Shown: positions 10,153 to 50,452 of the stretch, piece after piece
How the letters are laid out: every line of letters starts with the position of its first letter
Numbering within the stretch: the first letter of the stretch is position 1
Assembly: GCA_963678065.2 (NCBI GenBank)
Contig: CAXXVZ010000004.1
Location: 416,001-480,000 of the forward strand
Direction of reading: 5' to 3'
DNA: 64,000 bases
Source of the DNA: Treponemataceae bacterium
GTDB taxonomy: Bacteria; Spirochaetota; Spirochaetia; Treponematales; Rectinemataceae
Notes under the pieces: model-generated
Database searches by the model: none
The model's input: the letters and a program-made list of their open reading frames with translations, nothing else
Told to the model about the DNA's origin: nothing
Position numbers and translations under genes: made by a program

Positions 10153-10289
10153 CCACGAAACCTCGCATGGTTCCGTGCGGAGAGGATGTATCGAAGGGGC
10201 AGGAAAGACCGGAATCCCCGGGGTATGGAAGGGCTCCCGACTCGAGTCTGTCCTGTGCCGGACCACCACGAACCGCACAGAGATAATCG

Positions 10290-10548
10290 TCACGGCAGGT
10301 CTTCTGGCTTCCGGCTCAAACCTCACGTCCGGCCTTCCCGAACCTTTTTCAGGATCAGTGGCTTTACCAAACGATCGGAATCCACAAAGATTCCATTCGT
10401 TTGGTGCAGGCGCTCGTAACCGGTCACAGCGGCGGGTCCGCTCCCGATTTACCTTTCTGCCCCGAAAGCCGCTTAGCGGATTCAGGAGCAGTGGTCCACG
10501 GGATTCCCTCTTGGCGACAGCGGGTATTCCCGCTGCCGAACCGTAACG
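10290..10548 (-). ncRNA. Cobalamin riboswitch with an insertion in the P4 loop
   Basis: Minus strand reads AGGGAA, CCCGCCGCTGTGA, GCCACTG, GGGAAGG and the B12 box AAGCCAGAAGACCTGCC, upstream of cobO. Confidence 0.93.
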
Positions 10549-10556
10549 TCGGATTC

Positions 10557-10586
10557 TCTATACTGCTTTGCCCGGGGCGCTGTCAA
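10557..10586 (-). promoter_or_regulatory. Sigma70-type promoter for the riboswitch/cob operon
   Basis: TTGACA-N18-TATAGA immediately 5' of the riboswitch. Confidence 0.65.
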
Positions 10587-38774: not shown

Positions 38775-40277
38775 TCAGTCGGATTGCATGGCCGTGACGG
38801 GTTTGACCCGCAGGGCGACGACTGTCGGATACCAGGCCGACAGAAGACTCAGGGCGCTTATCCACAGGAAGGCCTTGACAGCCGCCCCCGCGGAGACGCG
38901 CGGGACGAGGACGGGTCCGCCGAAAAGCGCCTCGAAAAAAAGATTCGGCGCGTGGATGCCCACCCTGGAAAGGACGAGAAGGATGAGCCCTCCCGCCGCG
39001 AGGCCGGCGAGTCCGGCGATGATGGCGAGGAAGGCCGTCTCCTGGAGGACCATGGAGCGGACGAAGGCGCGCCTCGCCCCGATGGCGCGAAGGGTTCCTA
39101 TCTCGGCCACGCGCTCGCCTATCGAGACAACGAGGGCGTTCATGGTGATGATGACGACGACGACAGCCACGATGGACACGAGAAGGTCGAAGACGAGACG
39201 GACTGTCATGGCTGTGCGCGCGACGGTGCCGGCGCTTTCGACCCAGCCCTGCACGCGGGTGTCGACCTCGAGGCGGGCTGCCTCCTTTTCGACCGCGGCC
39301 ATAGTCCGCGAAGCGCTCTGGCCTTTCTTCATCGAGACGAGGAGGAATTGCCATGCGGGTTCGGGTTGATGTGACACCGTTGCAGAGGCGGGGCCCGCTG
39401 CGGCGCCGGTGGGAGGAGTCGCTCCGGTCGCGGCGGGAGAGGCTGTCGCCCCCGTCCCTGCTCCCGAGGTCGCGGCGGGAGAGGCGGCCGTCGCGGGTGT
39501 CTCGTCCGTGAACAGGCTGTCCGGGTTGAAGGACGCGACGAAAGCGCTCTCGGCGACAGTCAGCACGACAGGGCCGTCCCTGAGGCTCGCGAATCCCAGA
39601 AGATCGCGCATGGTATCGGCGTCGGCGAGTCCCATGTCCGCCAGGTCCCTGTTGTTCTGATTGAAGCGGAAGACCGCGCAGAGAGTCACTTCCCGGATGA
39701 CGGTCCCGGCCTGGTCCCCCTCGGCGCTCAGGATGATTCTGCTTCCGGGACCGACGGGAGCGGAACCGGCGCCTCCCAGCTTCCGGAGGGCCGATTCCGG
39801 CAGCATGACCCACGCGCCCTTCCCTGACTCCGGCCAGGAGCCGGAGACGAGCGTGATGTTCCCTGGGAAAAACTTTCGGTAGGAATCGATGTCGACGCCG
39901 AACATCGGCAGGCCGCCGAGAACCTGTTCCCCGAGTCCGATCGCGGTCCTGCCTGACAGCATCGGAAGGACGCCTCCGACTTCGGGCCTCGCGGACAGAA
40001 AGGAAGCGAGGGCCGCCGATTCCCTGATATGGGGCACGACTTCCTCTCCTCCGGAAGTCTCGGCGAAGACAGTCGTCGGAAAAACGGTGGGCCCGGTGAG
40101 CATGAAATCTCCGGTATATCCCTTGACGAAAATACGCTCGAGACCATTCACCGCCGTATCGATCAGGGAGTTCCCGACAAAGAGCACAGCTATGCCGAGA
40201 CACATGATCGTGCCTATCATGAGGGTCTTGGCTTTGTGGAGAAAGAGATTCCTGAACGCGATGGCGGAGGCGATCAT
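38775..40277 (-). CDS. FtsX/MacB-type ABC permease
   Basis: AFRNLFLHK, ERVAEIGTLRAIGA, KPVTAM. Confidence 0.92.
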   Translation of the reverse strand: MIASAIAFRNLFLHKAKTLMIGTIMCLGIAVLFVGNSLIDTAVNGLERIFVKGYTGDFMLTGPTVFPTTVFAETSGGEEVVPHIRESAALASFLSARPEVGGVLPMLSGRTAIGLGEQVLGGLPMFGVDIDSYRKFFPGNITLVSGSWPESGKGAWVMLPESALRKLGGAGSAPVGPGSRIILSAEGDQAGTVIREVTLCAVFRFNQNNRDLADMGLADADTMRDLLGFASLRDGPVVLTVAESAFVASFNPDSLFTDETPATAASPAATSGAGTGATASPAATGATPPTGAAAGPASATVSHQPEPAWQFLLVSMKKGQSASRTMAAVEKEAARLEVDTRVQGWVESAGTVARTAMTVRLVFDLLVSIVAVVVVIITMNALVVSIGERVAEIGTLRAIGARRAFVRSMVLQETAFLAIIAGLAGLAAGGLILLVLSRVGIHAPNLFFEALFGGPVLVPRVSAGAAVKAFLWISALSLLSAWYPTVVALRVKPVTAMQSD

Positions 40278-41056
40278 GAGGCGGCCATGCGCCCCGAAGT
40301 CAGGCTGTCGGCGTTCCCGACGGACGCGTGATACTGTCGCTCCTGCCTGCCCCTCCGGAGATCCTCCACGACGAGACCGTCCCTGAGCCGTATGACGTGG
40401 TCGGCGATGCCTACTATCCCTGAGTCGTGGGTGCTGAAAATGAAGGTGGTCCCGAGTTCCTTGTTCATCCTCTTCATGAGGGCGACAATGCTCTCGCCCG
40501 TCGCCGAATCGAGGTTGGCCGTCGGCTCATCGGCGAGGACGACCGGCGGCCTCATGACGAGGGCCCGGGCTATGGCCACGCGCTGGCGCTGCCCGCCCGA
40601 AAGCTCGGCGGGTTTGTGGTTGCGCCTGTCGACGAGCCCCACGCTCTCGACAAGGTGGTCGATCCACTCGCGATCCGCGCCGCGGGCGACGCGGCCTGAG
40701 CCTTTTTCGAGAAGGCGCGGCAACTCGATGTTCTCGATGACCGACAGGACGGGCACCAGGTTGAAGGACTGAAAGATAAAACCGAGGCCGGTGTGCCGCA
40801 GGGCGGTCAGCTTTTCGTCGTCGAGCTTGCCCGTATCCTGGCCCAGCACCGTAACGACGCCTTCGGTGGCGGTATCGATGCATCCTATGAGGTTCAGAAT
40901 GGTCGATTTCCCCGATCCCGAGGGGCCGGCGATGGAGATGAAATCCCCGCGGGAAATCCCGAAGCTTATGCCCCGGACAGCCTTGACCTCGGTGCTGCCG
41001 AGGGCGTAGGTCTTGTGGACGTTTTCCAGCCTGACAATGATGTCGTTTTCCTGCAT
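40274..41056 (-). CDS. LolD/MacB-type ABC ATP-binding protein
   Basis: GPSGSGKST, GFIFQSFNL, LSGGQRQR, ADEPTANLD. Confidence 0.95.
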   Translation of the reverse strand: MQENDIIVRLENVHKTYALGSTEVKAVRGISFGISRGDFISIAGPSGSGKSTILNLIGCIDTATEGVVTVLGQDTGKLDDEKLTALRHTGLGFIFQSFNLVPVLSVIENIELPRLLEKGSGRVARGADREWIDHLVESVGLVDRRNHKPAELSGGQRQRVAIARALVMRPPVVLADEPTANLDSATGESIVALMKRMNKELGTTFIFSTHDSGIVGIADHVIRLRDGLVVEDLRRGRQERQYHASVGNADSLTSGRMAAS

Positions 41057-41305
41057 GTCGAAGGATCCTCCGGCGGAATGCCCGTGCAAGGAGATCCCGC
41101 GGACTCGAATGTACCTGATCGCTGTTCTTTTTTCCATTAAACGGGGATTAAATGAAATAACAGAAGAGGGCCAAGAGGGCGGACAGTTCCGGCGCCGGCC
41201 GCGCAGATGCGGGCCGCCCGACTCCCCCCTTCCGCCAGGATTTCATGCAAGGCGGGCTTCGGCCCACGCTTCCTCGACAAGGCGTATCCGGGATATAGTT
41301 TTGCC

Positions 41306-42763
41306 ATGGCATACAGGGATCTGCAGGATTTCATGGCTCGCCTCGAGGAACGGGGCGAGCTTGTCAGGATAAAAGTCGAGGTCGACGCCGAACTCGAGAT
41401 CACGGAAATAGCCGACCGCGTCATGCGCTCAGGCGGCGCGGCTCTCCTCTTCGAAAAAGTCAGGGGTTCGGACTATCCGGTCCTCATCAACGCGATGGGG
41501 ACGGAATCGCGCATGGCGCTCGCCCTCGGGGCAGAGAGCCTCGACGCGAAGGCGAAGGAGATCGAGGATCTCCTCGGCTGGGTCTGGAAGCAGGTCCGCG
41601 GCTTCTCTGTGTTCTCGTCGATCCCAGAGGCTCTGCCGAAACTGCCGATCGCTCTCTCCCTCCTTCCCAAAAATGTGGCGAGGCCGCTGTGCCGCGAGGT
41701 CATCGACGACGAGGCCGGATTCGACAGCCTCCCTGTGCTCAAGTGCTGGCCGAAGGACGGGGGGCGCTTCTTCACCCTGCCCGTGGTCTGCACGGTGGAC
41801 CCCGAGAACGGGGCGCAGAACTGGGGCATGTACCGCATGCAGGTCTACGACGACAGGAGCTGCGGCATGCACTGGCACCTGCACAAGGACGGCGCGCACT
41901 TCTTCCAGAAATACCGCGAGCGCGGCCAGAGGATGCCCGTCGCCGTCGCCCTCGGCTCGGACCCCGCCGTCACCTACGCGTCCACCGCTCCGCTTCCCGA
42001 GGGCGTCTGGGAGGCCATCTTCGCGGGCTTCCTGCGCGGCAAGGCCGCGGAAGTGACGACGGCCACACTCTCCGGCATCAAGGTTCCGGCAGACGCGGAA
42101 TTCGTCCTGGAAGGCTACGTCGACCCCGCCGAATCGAGGATCGAAGGCCCCTTCGGCGACCACACCGGCTTCTACTCCCTGGAGGACGAGTACCCCGTCT
42201 TCCACCTGCAGAGGATCACGCGGCGGAAAAATCCCGTCTATCCGGCCACCATCGTCGGCATCCCTCCCAAAGAGGACTGCTTCATGGCCAAAGCCACCGA
42301 GCGGCTCTTCCTGCCCTTCCTGAAACAGCTCTGCCCCGAGATCGCCGACCTGACCATGCCCCTGGAGGGCGTCTTCCACAACTGCGTCATCGTGTCGATC
42401 AAGAAGCGCTTTCCCGGCCACGCCCGCAAGGTCATGGACTTCATCTGGGGCATGGGGCAGATGATGTACACCAAGCTCATCGTCGTGGTGGACGAGGAGG
42501 TCGACCTCAAGAACCTCTCGATGGTCGCCTGGAAGGTCTTCAACAACATCGACGCGCGGCGCGATCTCGTCCTCTCGGACGGTCCGCTGGACGCCCTGGA
42601 TCACTCCTCGCCCATGCCCCGCTACGGAACGCGCCTCGGGATCGACGCGACGCGGAAAGGGCCGGACGAGGGCCACACGCGCCCATGGCCCGACGGCCTC
42701 GCCATGAGCCCGGAGATCGTCGACCTCGTCACCAGGCGCTGGAAGGACTATGGAATTGACTGA
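41306..42763 (+). CDS. mqnL: UbiD-family (menaquinone/futalosine-type) decarboxylase
   Basis: LEITEIADR, CWPKDGG.F.TLP, GMYRMQ, HWHLHKDGA, EGPFGDHTGFY, LDHSS, GIDAT. Confidence 0.92.
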   Translation: MAYRDLQDFMARLEERGELVRIKVEVDAELEITEIADRVMRSGGAALLFEKVRGSDYPVLINAMGTESRMALALGAESLDAKAKEIEDLLGWVWKQVRGFSVFSSIPEALPKLPIALSLLPKNVARPLCREVIDDEAGFDSLPVLKCWPKDGGRFFTLPVVCTVDPENGAQNWGMYRMQVYDDRSCGMHWHLHKDGAHFFQKYRERGQRMPVAVALGSDPAVTYASTAPLPEGVWEAIFAGFLRGKAAEVTTATLSGIKVPADAEFVLEGYVDPAESRIEGPFGDHTGFYSLEDEYPVFHLQRITRRKNPVYPATIVGIPPKEDCFMAKATERLFLPFLKQLCPEIADLTMPLEGVFHNCVIVSIKKRFPGHARKVMDFIWGMGQMMYTKLIVVVDEEVDLKNLSMVAWKVFNNIDARRDLVLSDGPLDALDHSSPMPRYGTRLGIDATRKGPDEGHTRPWPDGLAMSPEIVDLVTRRWKDYGID

Positions 42764-43679
42764 GCCGCGGACCGAGGCGCCCGGACCGGATGCGAAGGCC
42801 CCGGACGGAGCCGGAAAAACTTTCGCAGGCAAGCTCGGCATGATCGGCGACGCGGTCATGATCCGCCACACCCTCTTCTCCCTGCCCTTTGCCCTCTCGG
42901 CCCTTCTTCTCGAGACAGGCGGTCACCCGCCTCTCGGAAAGACGGTCTGGATACTGCTCGCTGCGGCCTCGGCGCGCAACGCGGCCAACGCCATCAACCG
43001 CATCGTCGACAGGACCATCGACGCCCGCAACCCCCGCACGGCGGGGCGTCACCTTCCGTCAGGGAGGCTCGCGGTGAAGGACCTGGGATGGTTCAGCGCG
43101 GCCATGCTCGCGGTCTTTGTCTTCTCGACGGCGATGCTCGGCCCCCTCTGCCTGGCGCTCCTCCCCGTGGCCGGGATACTCGTTTTCGGCTACTCCTACA
43201 CCAAACGCTTCACCTGGCTCTGCCACGCATGGCTCGGCCTCACCTGCTCGGCCGCCACGATGGGCGCCTTCATCGCGATCGCCGGACGCTTCGAGTTCAG
43301 GTACTTCGTCATGACGGGAGCGGTGGCGGCCTGGGTCTGCGGTTTCGACATCATCTACGCGCTGCAGGACGTCGGGGTGGACCGCGCGCAGAAACTCCAC
43401 TCCATCCCCGCCCGCTTCGGTCCCAGGATCGCGAGGCTCATGGCGGCCGCATGCCACCTCGCCGCCGTGGCGGGATTCGCCGCGATGCCGTTCTTCTGGG
43501 AAGGGCTCGGCGCCGGCTACTGGCTCGCCCTCGCCCTCGCATCGGCGCTCCTCGTGGCCGAGCAGGTCATCGCCCGGGGCGGGACAGGACGGCATATCCG
43601 CATCGCAGCCTACAGTATCAACGAAATTATTCCGATTATATATACGATTGGCATTGTCAGCGAATTATACATACTATAA
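42750..43679 (+). CDS. mqnP: UbiA-family polyprenyltransferase (MqnP-type)
   Basis: HTLFSLPFA, NRIVDRTIDARNPRT.GR.LPSG, YSYTKRFTW, FDIIYALQD. Confidence 0.9.
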   Translation: MELTEPRTEAPGPDAKAPDGAGKTFAGKLGMIGDAVMIRHTLFSLPFALSALLLETGGHPPLGKTVWILLAAASARNAANAINRIVDRTIDARNPRTAGRHLPSGRLAVKDLGWFSAAMLAVFVFSTAMLGPLCLALLPVAGILVFGYSYTKRFTWLCHAWLGLTCSAATMGAFIAIAGRFEFRYFVMTGAVAAWVCGFDIIYALQDVGVDRAQKLHSIPARFGPRIARLMAAACHLAAVAGFAAMPFFWEGLGAGYWLALALASALLVAEQVIARGGTGRHIRIAAYSINEIIPIIYTIGIVSELYIL

Positions 43680-43688
43680 AATAACTGC

Positions 43689-44297
43689 ATGGCCCGATAC
43701 CTCGTTTGCCTGACCGGCGCCTCCGGCGCGATCTACGGCATCAGACTTCTTTCGGCCCTCGCCTCGACGGGAGCCACGGTGCACCTCGCCGCCTCTTCAT
43801 GGGGAGCCCGCGTTGTCCTGGAAGAAACGGGGCGCCCTCTCGGGTATTGGGTCGGCAAGATCAGGACCGCCGGCGGCCCCGGCGGCAGACCAGCCACCAT
43901 CTCAGTCCACGCCTCCGACGATCTCGGCGCCCCCGTCGCCTCGGGCAGCTTCAAGCTGGACGGAACGGCCATCGTGCCCTGTTCCATGGGCACGGTCGGG
44001 GCCCTCGCCTCGGGAGCGGTGTCCAACCTCGTCCACCGGGCCGGGGCGGTCGCCCTCAAGGAAGGATGGCCCCTCGTCCTCGTACCCCGCGAATCGCCGC
44101 TCTCCCTCGTCGCGCTGGAAGGGCTCGTCAAGCTGAAAGAGTCGGGCGCGACCATCCTTCCTGCCTGTCCCGGTTTCTACAACCGGCCCAAGGCGATCGA
44201 CGAACTGATAGACCAGATCACCTACCGGGTCCTGGACCACCTCGGTCTTCCGACGCCCGGCGCCCCTAAATGGAAAGACACAAGGGGCGAGGAGTAA
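43689..44297 (+). CDS. ubiX: UbiX-family flavin prenyltransferase (MqnM)
   Basis: TGASGAIYG, ASGS, PCSMGT, ALKE, VPRESP, PGFYNRP. Confidence 0.93.
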   Translation: MARYLVCLTGASGAIYGIRLLSALASTGATVHLAASSWGARVVLEETGRPLGYWVGKIRTAGGPGGRPATISVHASDDLGAPVASGSFKLDGTAIVPCSMGTVGALASGAVSNLVHRAGAVALKEGWPLVLVPRESPLSLVALEGLVKLKESGATILPACPGFYNRPKAIDELIDQITYRVLDHLGLPTPGAPKWKDTRGEE

Positions 44298-44301
44298 TTC
44301 C

Positions 44302-45219
44302 GTGAAGCGAACAGCCACCTTTCTCACCTTCTTGGCCCTCGTGGCCTTCTCTCTCGTCGCGCAGGGCAGAGAACTCAGGATCGGCATTCTCCCCGACGCC
44401 GACTCCCTTCCCCTCATGGTAGCCGAGGCCGCCAACGACTTCGCCGCCGAGGGCGTCGCGGTCAGACTCGTGAAGTTCCAGAATCCCGTCGAGCGGGACG
44501 CGGCATTCCAGGCGGGAGCCGTGGACGGCGTCATCGGCGATATCCTCGCCGCGGCCCTCGCTGTCCAGGGCGGCTTCGAGGTCAGGATCACGAGCCTCAC
44601 GGACGGACGCTACGGCATCGTCGTCGGACCCGATTCCGGCGTTTCCTCCCTGAAAGATCTCGCCGGAAAACAGATAGGCCTCTCCGCGAACACCATCATC
44701 CAGTACATGGTCGACAGCTTCATGACCGATGCGGGAGTCCCGCCTGAGAAAATCCTCAGCCTCGCCGTTCCCAAGATGCCCGTCAGGCTCGAGATGGTCC
44801 TGGGAGGCCAGACGGCCGCCGCCGGACTTCCCGAACCTCTCCTGACCCTCGCCAAAATCCGAGGCGGAAAAATCCTCGCCTCCACCGATGACTCGGGACT
44901 GCGCGCCGGCGTCATCCTCTTCACGAAGAAGGCCGCAGACTCGATGCAGGCGGAGATCCGCGCCATGTACAAGGCTTACTGGAGAGCGGCCAGGGCGATC
45001 AACGCGGACAACGAAGCCTACAGACCCTTCCTCGTCTCCAAGGCCAACTTTCCCGAGGAGACGGTATCGGCCTACCGCTTCGTCCGGTACGAAAAACCGC
45101 GGCTTCCCCTCCGCGCAGACATCGTTCCCGTCCTCTCCTGGATGAGGTCGAAGGGATTGCTGAGGGCCCCGGTCGATCCTGACAGCCTCCTCGACGGTAG
45201 AGCCCTGGCGGGATGGTAG
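44302..45219 (+). CDS. ABC substrate-binding protein (SsuA/NMT1-like)
   Basis: Signal peptide, IGILPDADSLP, ERDAAFQAGAVDG, LPEP. Confidence 0.88.
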   Translation: MKRTATFLTFLALVAFSLVAQGRELRIGILPDADSLPLMVAEAANDFAAEGVAVRLVKFQNPVERDAAFQAGAVDGVIGDILAAALAVQGGFEVRITSLTDGRYGIVVGPDSGVSSLKDLAGKQIGLSANTIIQYMVDSFMTDAGVPPEKILSLAVPKMPVRLEMVLGGQTAAAGLPEPLLTLAKIRGGKILASTDDSGLRAGVILFTKKAADSMQAEIRAMYKAYWRAARAINADNEAYRPFLVSKANFPEETVSAYRFVRYEKPRLPLRADIVPVLSWMRSKGLLRAPVDPDSLLDGRALAGW

Positions 45220-45983
45220 AGCTCGAAGGACTGTCGGTCGCCTACTCCACTCCCCGTGGTCCCGTCCGGGCCGTGGAAGATGTCTCGATTCTGTTCGCCC
45301 GGGGCGGCATACACGCCATAATCGGACCTTCCGGCTCCGGCAAGACGAGCCTCGTCCAGGCGATGGCCGGCCTTTTCGTCCCGCAGGCCGGGACGATCAG
45401 GATCGACGGCTCTCCCCTGTCGGGCATCCGCCCCCGGACCGCGGTCATTTTTCAGGATTTCGGACTCCTGCCCTGGAAGACCGTGATCGCGAACGCAGAG
45501 CTCCCCCTCCTTTTGCGCGGGATGGACCGGCGCGAGCGGAGAAGACGGGTCATGCCCATCCTCGAGGAGCTGGGCCTCGAATCCTTCCTCGAACTCTATC
45601 CGGTCAGACTCTCGGGCGGCATGCAGCAGCGACTCGCCGTGGCGCGGGCCCTCGCGGCCGAACCCGACCTTCTCCTCATGGACGAGCCCTTCTCCAGCCT
45701 GGACGCGCTGACGCGGGAAAACCTCCAGGAAACCCTTCTCGAAGTCCACGCGCGCCACGGCGCGACCATAATCCTCGTCACCCACTCCATCGAGGAGGCG
45801 GCTTACCTCGCCGACACGGTCACGGTGATGACCGGACGAAATCCGGGAAGGATCAGCGCGCGGATCGAGACGGAGAAAAACGCCCGGAAGACCGGGGAAA
45901 GCGGGAACAGGTCCTTCCGATCGAGCCCCGGCTTTCTCACCCTGACGACATCGATACGCGCGGCGCTGGAAGCGGAGTCATGA
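45213..45983 (+). CDS. ABC ATP-binding protein (SsuB/TauB-like)
   Basis: GPSGSGKTS, FQDFGLLPWKT, LSGGMQQR, MDEPFSSLD, VTHSIEEA. Confidence 0.95.
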   Translation: MVELEGLSVAYSTPRGPVRAVEDVSILFARGGIHAIIGPSGSGKTSLVQAMAGLFVPQAGTIRIDGSPLSGIRPRTAVIFQDFGLLPWKTVIANAELPLLLRGMDRRERRRRVMPILEELGLESFLELYPVRLSGGMQQRLAVARALAAEPDLLLMDEPFSSLDALTRENLQETLLEVHARHGATIILVTHSIEEAAYLADTVTVMTGRNPGRISARIETEKNARKTGESGNRSFRSSPGFLTLTTSIRAALEAES

Positions 45984-46738
45984 AAAAGAAAGGACTGGCT
46001 TCCCTCGCGGGCACGGCGGCGGCGCTCGCCATCCTCATCACTCTCTGGGGGCTCGCCTCGGCCCTCATCGCGAAGCCCTTCCTCCCGGGCCCTCTCAGGA
46101 CAGCGCTCCGCGCAGCCGAGCGCCTCGCCGACAGCAGGCTCCTTTCGCATCTCGGCGCTTCGGCGTGGAGGGTCTTCCTCGCCCTCGCCGCAGCAGGTCC
46201 CGCCGGTTTCGCCCTCGGCCTCGCGGCGGGCCGCTCGCGCCGCCTCGACACGCTGTTCTCCCCCTTCGTCTACATTCTCCATCCCCTGCCCAAGGTCGCC
46301 TTCCTGCCCGTCATCATGCTCCTCCTGGGCCTGGGGGATGCGGCAAAGATAACGCTGATCTGTCTCGTCATATTCGGCCAGCTCTTCGTCAACGCCCGGG
46401 ACGCCGCAAAGGATGTGCCGGAGCGCCTCGTCGACTCCGTCCGCTCCCTGGGCGGCAGCGGGGCCGACATCCTCAGACACGTCGTCCTCCCTGCATCCCT
46501 GCCCTCCCTCCTGTCCTCCCTGCGGGTGGCGCTCGGAACCTCCATCGCCGTCCTCTTCCTCTCCGAAACCTTCGCGTCGGAGAGCGGGCTCGGCTGGTAC
46601 ATTGTAGACGCATGGTCCAGGGTGGATTATCCGGATATGTACGCGGCCATCATCGTCCTCTCCGCCTTCGCCCTCGTCATCTTCGGGCTGATAGACGCCG
46701 CAGAAAGGGTCGCCTGCCGCTGGAGGGACAGGGATTGA
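45980..46738 (+). CDS. ABC permease (SsuC/TauC-like)
   Basis: HPLPKVAFLP, V.LPASLP, GLGWYI. Confidence 0.93.
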   Translation: MKKKGLASLAGTAAALAILITLWGLASALIAKPFLPGPLRTALRAAERLADSRLLSHLGASAWRVFLALAAAGPAGFALGLAAGRSRRLDTLFSPFVYILHPLPKVAFLPVIMLLLGLGDAAKITLICLVIFGQLFVNARDAAKDVPERLVDSVRSLGGSGADILRHVVLPASLPSLLSSLRVALGTSIAVLFLSETFASESGLGWYIVDAWSRVDYPDMYAAIIVLSAFALVIFGLIDAAERVACRWRDRD

Positions 46739-46855
46739 GCGGCCTCTCCGTATATGCCTTGCCCGTCGGCGAACCAGTGGCTACAATCGAGTTTCATAAA
46801 GGCATCCAGAAACCGGACCGGTCGCGGACGCGCCAGTCCATCCGGAGGCGCACCA

Positions 46856-47002
46856 ATGGACGATGTTGCCGGGATCGGAGTACGGATAGGGCTGCTCCGC
46901 GTTTCCTCGGGTACTCCCCACGAACTCGCTTCCGGATTGCTCGCGCTTTTTTCCGAGGCCTCCCGCACTGAAGTACCCGAGCGTGGAGGAATGTCCCGAT
47001 GA
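46856..47002 (+). CDS. Putative 48-aa small protein coupled to the histidine kinase
   Basis: TTGCCC-N17-TACAAT promoter (46759-46787), GGAGG RBS, ATGA overlap with the kinase start. Confidence 0.35.
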   Translation: MDDVAGIGVRIGLLRVSSGTPHELASGLLALFSEASRTEVPERGGMSR

Positions 47003-49581
47003 ACAGCCAGAGCATCCTCACACTCGTACAGAACGCGGGCATCCTCATCGCCATCGCGATCCTCGGCGATCTGTCTTCTCCCCGATGGGACGCCGATAAA
47101 AAGGGAATCGGGCGGATCGTCCTCGGCGCAGTGACGGGCGCGCTCGGCATCATACTCATGCTGACACCGATGCGCCTCATGTCAGGCGTCGTCTTCGACA
47201 CGCGCTCGATCCTTCTTGGAATTTCCGGCCTCTTCTTCGGCCCCATCCCCACACTGATCGCGATGGCCATGACGGCCGCACTGCGGCTTGTGCAGGGCGG
47301 CGACGGGGCCAGAATGGGTGTGGCCGTCATTCTGGTCACCGGGTCGGCGGGCATTCTGTGGAGGAAACTGCGCCGGAAAAGGGCCGCCGACCTCGGCTGG
47401 CCCGAACTCTATGTTTTTGGCCTCAGCCTCCACGTCGCCATGCTCGCGTGCACGGTCTTCCTTCCATCCGCCATACGGGGGGCCGTGCTGGGGAGCATCA
47501 TAGCCCCTGTGCTGCTGATCTATCCTGCCGGGACTGCCCTCCTCGGCAGACTCCTCGTCAATCGTCTGAAACGGAAAGAGATTGCCGACGCACTTGCTGA
47601 GAGCGAGGAGAGGCTCAGACTCGCCATGGAAGTGAATGAGATCGGGTTCTTCGAGCACGATCTCGTGACGGGCAGGGTCCATTACTCGTCCGAGTGGAAG
47701 CCACGGCTCGACCATCACCCTGCTGATCTTCCCGACTCTCCCGATGCCTGGGAAAGCCGGATACATCCGGATGACAAGGCTGCCGTTCTCGCGAAGGAGC
47801 GCGAATGGTGGGCGGGGCAGTCGCCGGAATACGAAGCGGAATTCCGGTTCAGACACCTCGATGGGAGCTGGCGATGGCTGCTGGCCCGGGGCCACCTCGT
47901 CACGGACGACAAGGGTCGGCCAATCAAGGCGGCGGGCTGCCACATCGACATCACAAAGCGGAAACAGGACGAGGAAGCGATCCGCGCCACCGAACGACGG
48001 TTCCGGAGCCTCGCCGAAAGCTCCAGCGACTACATCATGCTCTACGACCGGGAAGGCAGGCATGTTTACATGAATCCGGCCGGCATGGCGGCCGCGGGAT
48101 TCACCGAGTCGGACATCATCGGGAAAACCCATCAGCAGGCCAACTACGGGGCGCATGCGAGCGAGTACCGGAAATCCGATATCGAGGCGGTTTTCGAAAC
48201 CGGCAGGCCGTCGACCCGCCTCATCAGGTGGGAGAAACCCGAAGGGACCTTCTATCTTGACTGGCGACTGTCCCCCGTGCCCGGTCCCGACGGAAACACC
48301 GAGCTCGTTCTGGGCATCTCCCGCGATATAACCGCGCTCAAGCGCGCCGAAGCCGAGCTCAGGAAAAAGGAAGAACTGTTTCGGGCGCTCATCGAGAACG
48401 CGCCCGACGGAGTGACCCTCATAAACCTGGAGGGCGAGTTCATCTATGTCAGCCCCTCGGCCCGAAAGATGTTCAGCTATGAGCCCGACGAACCCATTAC
48501 GGCGAGGCCGGTGGACAGCACACATCCCGATGATCTTCCCTCCGTCCTGGAGGCCCTGGATCAGACAATAAAAAACCCCGGAACCGTGCCGGCCAGGGAA
48601 TACCGTTTCCGCAAGAAAAATGGCGAGTGGCTCTGGATCGAGAGCAGGTTCTCCAACCTCCTGGACCGGCCGGGCGTCGAGGCCATCGTCATCAACTTCC
48701 GCGACATAAGCGCGCAGAAAAAATCGGATGCCGAAGTGAAGTCCACCCATCTCGAACTGCGCCGCCTTCTTGGCGAAGCCGACGAGTCGCGGAAAGTTCT
48801 CCTCAGCATGGTCGAGGATCTGAAGCGGTCGGAAGAACAGATACGCAGACTCAACGCGGAACTCGAGAGCAGGGTCAGGGACAGGACGGCCCAGCTGGAG
48901 GCGGCCAACAGGGAACTCGAATCTTTCGCCTACTCCGTCTCGCACGATCTGCGCTCGCCTCTGCGGGCGATAGACGGTTTCAGCGTCGCCCTTCTGCGCG
49001 AATACCGGGACAGGATGGACGAAAACGGAATCCACTACCTCGAGCGGATCACGGAAGGGACGAGAAGGATGGGACAGCTCATCAACGACCTGCTCGGTCT
49101 CTCCCGGGTCACCAGATCCGAGTTCGCGCGGAGCGTGGTGGACCTGAGTTCCCTCGCGGCGGGAATTCTCGCCGGGCTCGCGGCCGGCAGCCCCGACAGA
49201 AAAGTGGAGACCCGCGTCCAGCAGGGACTCTGCGTTCAGGGCGACCCGAGCCTGCTCGACATCATGCTTGAAAACCTTCTTGGAAATGCCTGGAAATTCA
49301 CGGAAAAAACGCCAAGCCCGGTCGTGGAGTTCGGCGCCGGATTCTCCGACGGCAGGACTGTTTTCTTCGTTCGGGACAACGGAGTCGGCTTCGACATGGC
49401 CTACGCGAACAAGCTCTTCGCCCCCTTCCAGAGGCTCCACAGGACGGACGAGTTCCCCGGGACAGGCATCGGACTCGTCACTGTACAGCGGATCGTGCAG
49501 AGGCACGGCGGAAAAATCTGGCCCGAGGCCGCGCCCGGCACGGGAGCCACGTTCCGGTTTACGCTCGGCAATACCGTTTGA
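46999..49581 (+). CDS. Sensor histidine kinase: 5TM-5TMR_LYT + three PAS + HisKA/HATPase
   Basis: VFDTRSI..G.SGLFFGP, IHPDD/THPDD PAS motifs, SVSHDLRSPL, NAWKFT, DNGVGF, GTGIGL. Confidence 0.93.
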   Translation: MNSQSILTLVQNAGILIAIAILGDLSSPRWDADKKGIGRIVLGAVTGALGIILMLTPMRLMSGVVFDTRSILLGISGLFFGPIPTLIAMAMTAALRLVQGGDGARMGVAVILVTGSAGILWRKLRRKRAADLGWPELYVFGLSLHVAMLACTVFLPSAIRGAVLGSIIAPVLLIYPAGTALLGRLLVNRLKRKEIADALAESEERLRLAMEVNEIGFFEHDLVTGRVHYSSEWKPRLDHHPADLPDSPDAWESRIHPDDKAAVLAKEREWWAGQSPEYEAEFRFRHLDGSWRWLLARGHLVTDDKGRPIKAAGCHIDITKRKQDEEAIRATERRFRSLAESSSDYIMLYDREGRHVYMNPAGMAAAGFTESDIIGKTHQQANYGAHASEYRKSDIEAVFETGRPSTRLIRWEKPEGTFYLDWRLSPVPGPDGNTELVLGISRDITALKRAEAELRKKEELFRALIENAPDGVTLINLEGEFIYVSPSARKMFSYEPDEPITARPVDSTHPDDLPSVLEALDQTIKNPGTVPAREYRFRKKNGEWLWIESRFSNLLDRPGVEAIVINFRDISAQKKSDAEVKSTHLELRRLLGEADESRKVLLSMVEDLKRSEEQIRRLNAELESRVRDRTAQLEAANRELESFAYSVSHDLRSPLRAIDGFSVALLREYRDRMDENGIHYLERITEGTRRMGQLINDLLGLSRVTRSEFARSVVDLSSLAAGILAGLAAGSPDRKVETRVQQGLCVQGDPSLLDIMLENLLGNAWKFTEKTPSPVVEFGAGFSDGRTVFFVRDNGVGFDMAYANKLFAPFQRLHRTDEFPGTGIGLVTVQRIVQRHGGKIWPEAAPGTGATFRFTLGNTV

Positions 49582-50452
49582 ACCTGCCCGCCTTTCCCGC
49601 CCCGGCGAGGTATCCGGCCTTCGTGAAGGTGTAGAGGATCTTGCGCGCGGCGCTTGTGGCGATGCCGAGACTCTCGGAGAGGCTTTCTGTCGTCCAGGAG
49701 CCTTCCTCCGCGGGCAGGAGGGCGAGCCAATCGGCGGGACAGGCCATGACGCGCGATTCCCGCACCGCCGACAGCCTTCTGTCGAGGAGGCTGTCGCCCT
49801 TGCGGCGCCAGGACCCGGCTCCATCGAGCATCCTGAGATCCTCAACTTCCACAGAGAGGACTTCGACGACGATTCCCGGGGTCGAAAGGAGCAGAGGCGC
49901 GTGGACCATCTCGTCGAAGACCGACCAGAAGTCCCGCCTTTTAGGACTCTTCCGGCGGGAGAGGACTTCTCCCGTTTCCGGATCGAGCCGCACGACAACC
50001 GACCGCGCGATGACAGGGTGGATTATTCTCACTCTGTGACCGGCGCCAGCCAGGTAGATCGCCTTTTCCTGGATACTTCCGAGCTTCGAAGTCTGTATCT
50101 CGACAATCTCGCCATCGGGCAGGACGAGGTCGACGACCCGCCCGAGAACAGGCACCTCGAAGCGGGGCGAGGGCGCATCGCTCCGGGCGGCCCGGCTCAA
50201 GTTCCGGGCAGCCCGGCTCAGGTTCTGGGCCGCCCAGAGTTTGAGCTGGGCGTGGAGACCGTACTCGGACCAGAGATTGATGCCGGCGCGCTCCGCCGCA
50301 AATTCCTGGCCGGAATCCTCGAGCGCATACTCCGCGACAGAGTCCCGCCCGACCCCGAGCGCGGGGTGTCTCTCCGAACGCAGCGTGCGCACGAGCCCGG
50401 CGGGTACGACTTCCTGTGTGCCGGCGCAGCCGGCTCTGTCAGCGGAGGACAT
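49559..50452 (-). CDS. Hypothetical protein, probable PD-(D/E)XK nuclease fold with C-terminal HTH; start uncertain
   Basis: LHAQLK, FEVPV.GRVVDLV..DGEIVEIQT; C-terminal WTTESLSESLGI....ARKILY. Confidence 0.6.
   Translation of the reverse strand: MSSADRAGCAGTQEVVPAGLVRTLRSERHPALGVGRDSVAEYALEDSGQEFAAERAGINLWSEYGLHAQLKLWAAQNLSRAARNLSRAARSDAPSPRFEVPVLGRVVDLVLPDGEIVEIQTSKLGSIQEKAIYLAGAGHRVRIIHPVIARSVVVRLDPETGEVLSRRKSPKRRDFWSVFDEMVHAPLLLSTPGIVVEVLSVEVEDLRMLDGAGSWRRKGDSLLDRRLSAVRESRVMACPADWLALLPAEEGSWTTESLSESLGIATSAARKILYTFTKAGYLAGAGKAGRFKRYCRA

Follow-up and report, generated by a model that had tools for sequence, protein, structure and literature searches.

A six-gene block within a 64,000-nucleotide stretch of a Treponemataceae genome (contig CAXXVZ010000004.1, positions 416,001 to 480,000; this whole stretch is called the window, and unlabelled coordinates refer to it) joins ubiD, ubiA and ubiX genes of the late futalosine type to the genes of an ATP-binding cassette (ABC) importer. 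We consider it probable that the importer takes up dihydroxynaphthoate head groups for quinone salvage, and very probable that its cargo is a quinone ring of some kind. This reading is carried by the identities and conservation of the genes, by ring-synthesis genes not being found in the source genome, by co-occurrence in the Bacillota, and by linkage and fusion of the binding protein to two types of prenyltransferase.

The six-gene operon

Region 41306-46738 is filled by six intact open reading frames (ORFs), listed here with a putative promoter element.

41294..41299, + strand: putative -10 element TATAGT, 6 nt upstream of the ubiD start
41306..42763, + strand: ubiD, MqnL-type decarboxylase dependent on prenylated flavin mononucleotide (prFMN), 485 aa
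42750..43679, + strand: ubiA, MqnP-like UbiA-family polyprenyltransferase, 309 aa
43689..44297, + strand: ubiX, UbiX/MqnM flavin prenyltransferase, 202 aa
44302..45219, + strand: solute-binding protein (SBP) of the SsuA/NMT1 fold, candidate dihydroxynaphthoate binder, 305 aa, GTG start
45213..45983, + strand: ABC ATPase, TauB/SsuB-like, 256 aa
45980..46738, + strand: ABC importer permease, TauC/SsuC-like, 252 aa

The genes are tightly packed, their successive junctions being a 14 bp overlap, a 9 bp gap, a 4 bp gap, a 7 bp overlap and a 4 bp overlap, and we infer that they are co-transcribed as one operon. Six packed or overlapping genes had been described in the initial annotation of the region, and the ORFs, the family-model scans and the intact motifs confirm them. 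Public DNA run X7 spans 40200-47200 in full (each of 30 bins), and no letter differences are listed for it; metatranscriptome runs X1-X3 hold just short contig pieces of the locus and are evidence of neither expression nor co-transcription. The source genome (G000), a spirochaete, is 99.94% complete with 6.72% contamination, and the closest relatives of the locus carry the labels Rectinemataceae and other spirochaetes.

In the family-model scan UbiD lies above the MqnL equivalog TIGR03701 (595.9 against a cut-off of 495.9) and below the ubiquinone UbiD model PRK10922 (395.5 against 788), and its motif EGPFGDHTGFY is intact. UbiX passes TIGR00421 (168.8 against 108.9), likewise with intact motifs. 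The sole model passed by UbiA, both Asp-rich motifs of which are intact, is TIGR01475, ubiA_other (241.7 against 180.8); the protein scores below the proteobacterial UbiA model (97.8 against 275) and below all three curated MqnP models (238 against 430 for MqnP_DT, 198.7 against 420, and 167.6 against 375), and because of the latter it is called MqnP-like here, not MqnP. These curated models are lineage-specific, and the MqnP-like proteins of MqnA/D-positive Bacillota (L112, L134, L145) fail them too. The two features by which MqnP is assigned, membership of the ubiA_other subfamily and adjacency to mqnL, are both found, with ubiA overlapping ubiD.

The SBP carries an N-terminal signal-like segment and matches PF09084 with 45.5 bits; it stays well under the SsuA model TIGR01728 (72.8 against 163.5) and has no PF02621 (MqnA/MqnD) match in the Pfam scan. 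The ATPase matches PF00005, has Walker A, LSGG and Walker B motifs, and finds its best NCBIfam model in TauB, below the cut-off (211.6 against 357), and the permease matches PF00528 (BPD_transp_1, 78 bits) and falls under the cut-offs of the SaoP, TauC and SsuC models. A binding protein, a BPD_transp_1 permease and an ATPase with Walker and signature motifs together make up a type I ABC importer.

The putative -10 element would yield a leaderless or near-leaderless ubiD transcript, and in an alignment of 18 upstream regions most have a TATA(C/G)T-like element a few bases 5' of the start codon. Between the operon and a divergent ABC gene, at 41120-41160, a conserved motif like ATGAAAGAAAATAACA, possibly a promoter or operator, is present in many relatives. 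The end of ubiA just 5' of ubiX (43626-43682) is an A+T-rich patch that holds four of the five sigma-70-like matches of the region (0.4 expected) and is a possible internal promoter before ubiX. In G054, ubiX and the SBP, ATPase and permease genes stand as a unit apart from ubiD-ubiA.

Quinone genes of the source genome

Whole-genome searches of G000 gave no match to PF02621 (MqnA/MqnD), to TIGR00423 (MqnC/MqnE) or to MenB, and the best scores for MqnB (TIGR03664), MenD and MenG were 43.6, 64.2 and 48 against cut-offs of 124.7, 244.2 and 158.35; control genomes gave matches in each ring-gene search. A complete futalosine pathway (mqnA-E; MqnZ was not searched for) was not found in this genome, nor was the classical Men pathway (menB, menD, menG), nor MenG/UbiE for a ubiquinone-type route, ubiquinone hydroxylases not having been searched for. 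The absence of mqnABCDE and men genes noted earlier for the window extends to the whole genome for mqnABCDE and the men ring genes, and the genome search proposed in the initial annotation found a HepT-like polyprenyl synthase and none of mqnA-E, MenB, MenD or MenG. The HepT-like gene (C2:52165-53136) lies directly 3' of an Ndh2-like gene (C2:49970-52027); G000 also encodes ApbE, cydA (cytochrome bd) and, on C3, a stand-alone MenA-like protein with a score of 278.4, below the MenA cut-off of 289. With a tail synthase, two head-attachment enzymes and quinone users present and the ring genes not found, this appears to be a cell without recognisable ring synthesis. One more UbiA-family gene, the third and a divergent one, lies directly 5' of cydAB (C4:251028-251888, locus L003) and matches no NCBIfam model at 1e-10.

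Conservation among spirochaetes

The order ubiD-ubiA-ubiX-SBP is kept at 19 of 24 related loci, with all six genes at 17; three of the remaining loci are cut by contig ends and two come from Bacillota, one with the SBP gene directly 5' of a menA whose product is above cut-off and the other with it beside apbE. MqnL over cut-off is encoded by 26 of 60 related spirochaete genomes, every one of which carries the SBP, and neither MenB nor MqnC/E occurs in any of the 19 spirochaete SBP carriers tested (of 33). Weak PF02621 matches in 18 of the 60 relatives (at most 49.1 bits) were not taken as MqnA/D; they lie far under genuine Bacillota MqnA/D, which score about 160-276 bits over their full length, and four of the five cases inspected were binding-protein-like ORFs, three of these beside ABC genes.

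Among more distant spirochaete SBP genes, four are divergent from a MenA-like gene scoring under MenA cut-offs, and three others come after an Ndh2-like gene and mqnP. The family is rare in a phylum-wide sample, with just five of 201 genomes; two more distant carriers there (G587, G579) have no prenyltransferase gene nearby. In a Treponema metagenome-assembled genome (L027:8438) the SBP gene is frameshifted and the other five genes look intact.

Co-occurrence in the Bacillota

A profile built from 22 SBP family members and searched in 351 Bacillota genomes (the phylum of G061) matched 105 of them; plasmids gave no matches to a family member from the Bacillota. A UbiA-family gene is present in all 105 carriers and in 141 of the 246 non-carriers, a coarse test since the match includes haem O synthases, and MqnA/D is present in 44 of the 105 carriers and 41 of the 246 non-carriers. 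Of the 61 carriers without MqnA/D, six have MenB and none has MqnC/E, which leaves 55 without either route. The MqnL search covered those 161 of the 351 genomes that combine a UbiA-family gene with a lack of MqnA/D, the rest being 105 UbiA-negative and 85 MqnA/D-positive genomes. MqnL exceeded the cut-off in 39, and 38 of these 39 carry the SBP, as do 44 of the 85 MqnA/D-positive genomes. An importer that a cell needs where the upstream steps are missing, and can do without where they are present, would be expected to show such a distribution. Of the three outcomes that the initial annotation named as refuting, none was observed. The ABC genes are conserved beside ubiD, ubiA and ubiX, and no de novo ring pathway was found in the source genome, in the 19 spirochaete carriers tested or in the 55 Bacillota carriers. 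The third outcome, an SBP for sulfonate, nitrate or hydroxymethylpyrimidine, gains no support from the SBP score below the SsuA model or from the riboswitch scans of 42 stretches and the window, which showed neither an FMN nor a thiamine pyrophosphate riboswitch.

Neighbourhoods, fusions and tree

The neighbourhood set comprised 100 Bacillota loci of about 12.6 kb each from 96 genomes, with neighbours counted to a distance of about 6 kb from the SBP gene. At 37 of them, in several lineages, an mqnP- or menA-like gene lies within this distance (by a rough estimate, the probability of this by chance is below 1%): 28 have ubiD and an mqnP-like gene, 12 a menA-like gene, and three have both. Other neighbours are ubiX (18), hepT (7), apbE (6) and ndh2 (4), and ten further loci added two mqnP-like neighbours and one menA-like one. 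The curated MenA cut-offs are passed by six of nine full-length MenA-like neighbours from Bacillota. Each of the two linkages is spread over the tree built from 120 binding proteins, with 16 label changes, and a single clade of menA-linked SBPs is rejected (approximately unbiased test, p 2.7e-46). In two single-chain fusions, P0177 (MenA-like::SBP) and P0288 (MqnP-like::SBP), the linker is short and a second signal segment is not obvious; a further candidate, P0275, with MenA and SBP domains, was rejected as a fusion on account of its frameshift-like middle and the SBP signal segment it has kept. The importer had been proposed to be dedicated to futalosine-type enzymes: the linkage to these holds, the dedication does not, as family members also stand beside and are fused to MenA-like proteins.

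Three loci (L094, L095, L098) combine the six-gene block with ndh2 facing hepT, an FMN-binding protein gene and a MenA-like gene; by their gene content they are FLEET-like (flavin-based electron transfer) loci with both head-group routes. Elsewhere the importer genes are divergent from a complex I (nuo) operon (L124, L133) or are followed by cytochrome c maturation genes (L168, L173, L202). A TetR-family gene, a candidate ligand-sensing regulator, recurs 5' of the importer genes (L111, L118, L128, L160, L161, L164, L171, L191). Tandem two-domain forms of the SBP, which could bind two ligands, also occur (P0122, P0131, P0135, P0146, P0259), some of them from Chloroflexota.

The binding protein

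The AlphaFold model of the SBP (predicted local distance difference test score 95.4) belongs to the SsuA/TauA/ThiY/PqqT fold class. Its top structural matches are SsuA, CmpA and TauA, at 14-22% identity; the best single-sequence match in the PDB is PqqT (E 6e-9, about 21% identity), and the ESM Atlas search returned generic NMT1 clusters only. Such fold searches give the class and do not name the ligand. Structural Z scores are 28.9 for SsuA, 26.5 for PqqT, 19.3 for MqnD (2czl) and 16.7 for MqnA, so that the resemblance to the type II fold of MqnA and MqnD, which the initial annotation had pointed out, is real and adds little weight, being weaker than that to SsuA. In the 120-member alignment P37, R162 and W280 are invariant and D80 is found in 119; every one of the 35 mqnP-linked SBPs has R65. 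The conserved arginines, at positions read from the alignment, would be compatible with a carboxylate ligand. No residue set in this alignment cleanly separates menA-linked from mqnP-linked SBPs.

Proposed function

MenA and MqnP both take a dihydroxynaphthoate as acceptor and a polyprenyl chain as donor, and a synthase for the donor is encoded in G000. In the mechanism that we propose, the SBP would capture soluble dihydroxynaphthoate, which the permease and ATPase would import; the most likely ligand is 1,4-dihydroxy-6-naphthoate, which is favoured as the compound that MqnD makes in the last of the steps missing here, and the 2-isomer is possibly a ligand as well. The MqnP-type enzyme would prenylate the imported ring, with a tail from the HepT-like synthase, and MqnL would remove the carboxyl group with prFMN supplied by UbiX, in either order. 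Users of the quinone would be the Ndh2-like dehydrogenase and cytochrome bd. The initial annotation had the cell import an aromatic precursor and finish menaquinone: the salvage is supported, and the product is probably demethylmenaquinone instead, because MenG was not found in G000. The importer could also bring in the 2-isomer for the MenA-like enzyme, and where the importer family is menA-linked it would feed MenA in the same way; in producers it would recapture leaked intermediate. The best reading of the distribution is an importer that auxotrophs need and producers can do without.

Several points weigh against this proposal. It rests on genomic context, with ligand binding, transport and the direction of use predicted, and the roles and step order of MqnP, MqnL and MqnM are themselves predictions (PMC4746308; bioRxiv 2021.10.26.465979). 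UbiA lies under the MqnP cut-offs. The importer also occurs outside auxotrophs: of the 105 carriers in the Bacillota, 50 have MqnA/D or MenB. These 50 amend the scavenging proposed initially, which the 55 carriers without either route support. One genome, G208, has an orphan MqnL and no SBP family member (best 76.7 bits), and as related genomes are not independent the Fisher p values of the co-occurrence are overstated. No prenyltransferase gene lies within 6 kb at 63 of the 100 Bacillota loci, and L045, a distant long-branch relative, sits 5' of cytX-thiM (thiamine salvage). Each fusion comes from one contig, so that an assembly error is possible, direct adjacency holding even so. G000 lacks lumazine synthase, which implies a need for flavin uptake. 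To our knowledge there is no evidence for release of the 6-isomer by producers.

Alternative explanations

The strongest alternative, which we regard as improbable, is that the cargo is a different ring (menadione, 2-amino-3-carboxy-1,4-naphthoquinone (ACNQ), cyclic dehypoxanthine futalosine or hydroxybenzoate) and that the orphan enzymes make a non-canonical prenylquinone. It fits the co-occurrence, neighbourhood and fusion data equally well, several linked MenA-like proteins fail the MenA models just as UbiA fails those for MqnP, and PqqT, the best single-sequence match, binds a whole quinone cofactor. However, the retained MqnL and UbiX imply a carboxylated substrate, the earlier futalosine-type intermediates would need MqnB/C/D, which the genome searches did not find, and the ubiquinone-type route lacks its MenG/UbiE.

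It is very unlikely that the importer is a RibXY-like flavin transporter feeding FMN and FAD (flavin mononucleotide and flavin adenine dinucleotide) to UbiX, ApbE and Ndh2. RibY, too, is a COG0715-class protein (PMC4418817), apbE and ndh2 occur among the neighbours, and the source genome may need flavin. Against this, no FMN riboswitch was found in the 42 stretches scanned (some overlapping) or in the window, no rib genes are among the 80 recurring-neighbour representatives scanned, and the linkage and fusion to MenA concern an enzyme that needs no flavin. Lumazine synthase in 68 of 80 carriers is a weak argument, flavin importers being common in producers (PMC4418817).

No likelier is an unrecognised route by which the carriers make the ring themselves, with the importer just recapturing leaked intermediate. 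Half of the Bacillota carriers are indeed producers, and cases of non-orthologous replacement, MqnZ among them, are known (PMC4746308), but MqnA/D, MqnC/E and MqnB would have to be replaced simultaneously, and an importer near-obligate where ring genes are missing and optional where they are present argues otherwise.

Least likely of all, an ordinary sulfonate, taurine or hydroxymethylpyrimidine importer hitchhiking with the operon would suit the top structural matches and the thiamine salvage genes beside L045, but the SBP scores under every curated cut-off at low identity to the matched structures, no thiamine pyrophosphate (TPP) riboswitch was found in the 42 stretches or the window, and linkage to two prenyltransferase types has arisen repeatedly and independently, alongside the near-complete association with orphan MqnL.

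Significance

Many anaerobes that are hard to culture have their growth controlled by quinone cross-feeding. Uptake of dihydroxynaphthoate by this family, if true, would provide a genomic marker for quinone scavengers in nearly a third of the Bacillota genomes sampled (105 of 351), explain orphan mqnL-mqnP-mqnM clusters, point to a supplement for growing spirochaetes and clostridia not yet cultured, and offer a natural setting for testing the still-unproven last futalosine steps. For a transporter predicted but not identified, the work puts forward a protein that is soluble and folds well, together with two candidate ligands. With only slightly more belief than doubt we extend the proposal further: the SBP family may be the missing high-affinity importer of menaquinone head groups, widespread in anaerobic Bacillota and spirochaetes and serving both the MenA and MqnP routes, and may reveal a guild of futalosine-route auxotrophs living on 1,4-dihydroxy-6-naphthoate from their neighbours.

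Other features of the window

A cobalamin riboswitch on the reverse strand (10277-10560) lies 5' of cbiF-cbiG-cbiH-like genes and a Btu-like ABC importer. A 297-aa ORF on the forward strand (49559-50452) has no Pfam or NCBIfam match.

Comparison with known systems

The operon resembles the late futalosine steps assigned to MqnP, MqnL and MqnM (PMC4746308) in its UbiD above TIGR03701, its UbiA of the ubiA_other/MqnP group and the UbiX in the same cluster. Ravcheev and Thiele, who named mqnP, mqnL and mqnM, report these genes only in genomes with the Mqn pathway (PMC4746308); unlike those cases, the genes described here have an ABC importer attached and come from a genome in which neither mqnA-E nor menG was found. 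That paper leaves the precursor transporters to be annotated, transporters for menaquinone or DHNA (1,4-dihydroxy-2-naphthoic acid) are given as not described in PMC5738691, and the incorporation route in Lactiplantibacillus plantarum as unidentified in PMC10746273. Our literature search, which covered few subscription journals and no supplements (such as the PubSEED tables of PMC4746308), found no transporter of this family named, and 1,4-dihydroxy-6-naphthoate was not described as a shared metabolite in the literature searched.

Late prenylation of an external naphthoate is shared with the MenA-only DHNA salvage of the FLEET locus of Listeria and L. plantarum (dmkA, dmkB, ndh2; PMC10746273), and Ndh2-like, HepT-like, ApbE and FMN-binding genes co-cluster with the SBP family at nine loci (L094, L095, L098, L101, L102, L104, L040, L041, L050); unlike that salvage, the present operon uses MqnP/MqnL rather than MenA and has an importer. 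The cofactor-salvage importers ThiXYZ, RibXY and PqqT have the fold and the three-gene layout in common with it, and the conserved S-x-N-T-I-I-x-Y segment of the SBP overlaps, by alignment count, the stretch of PqqT with K142, which binds pyrroloquinoline quinone (PMC11331073). It differs from them in its neighbours, which are quinone prenylation genes, and in its low identity to PqqT; the riboswitches or rib/thi context that mark RibXY and ThiXYZ were not found, apart from thi genes beside the one distant relative. SsuABC and TauABC supply the nearest curated models and top structural matches, but all three importer subunits lie under the curated cut-offs, and no desulfonation genes are among the recurring neighbours scanned. 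The parts of the operon are of known kinds, and their combination and the proposed cargo are new.

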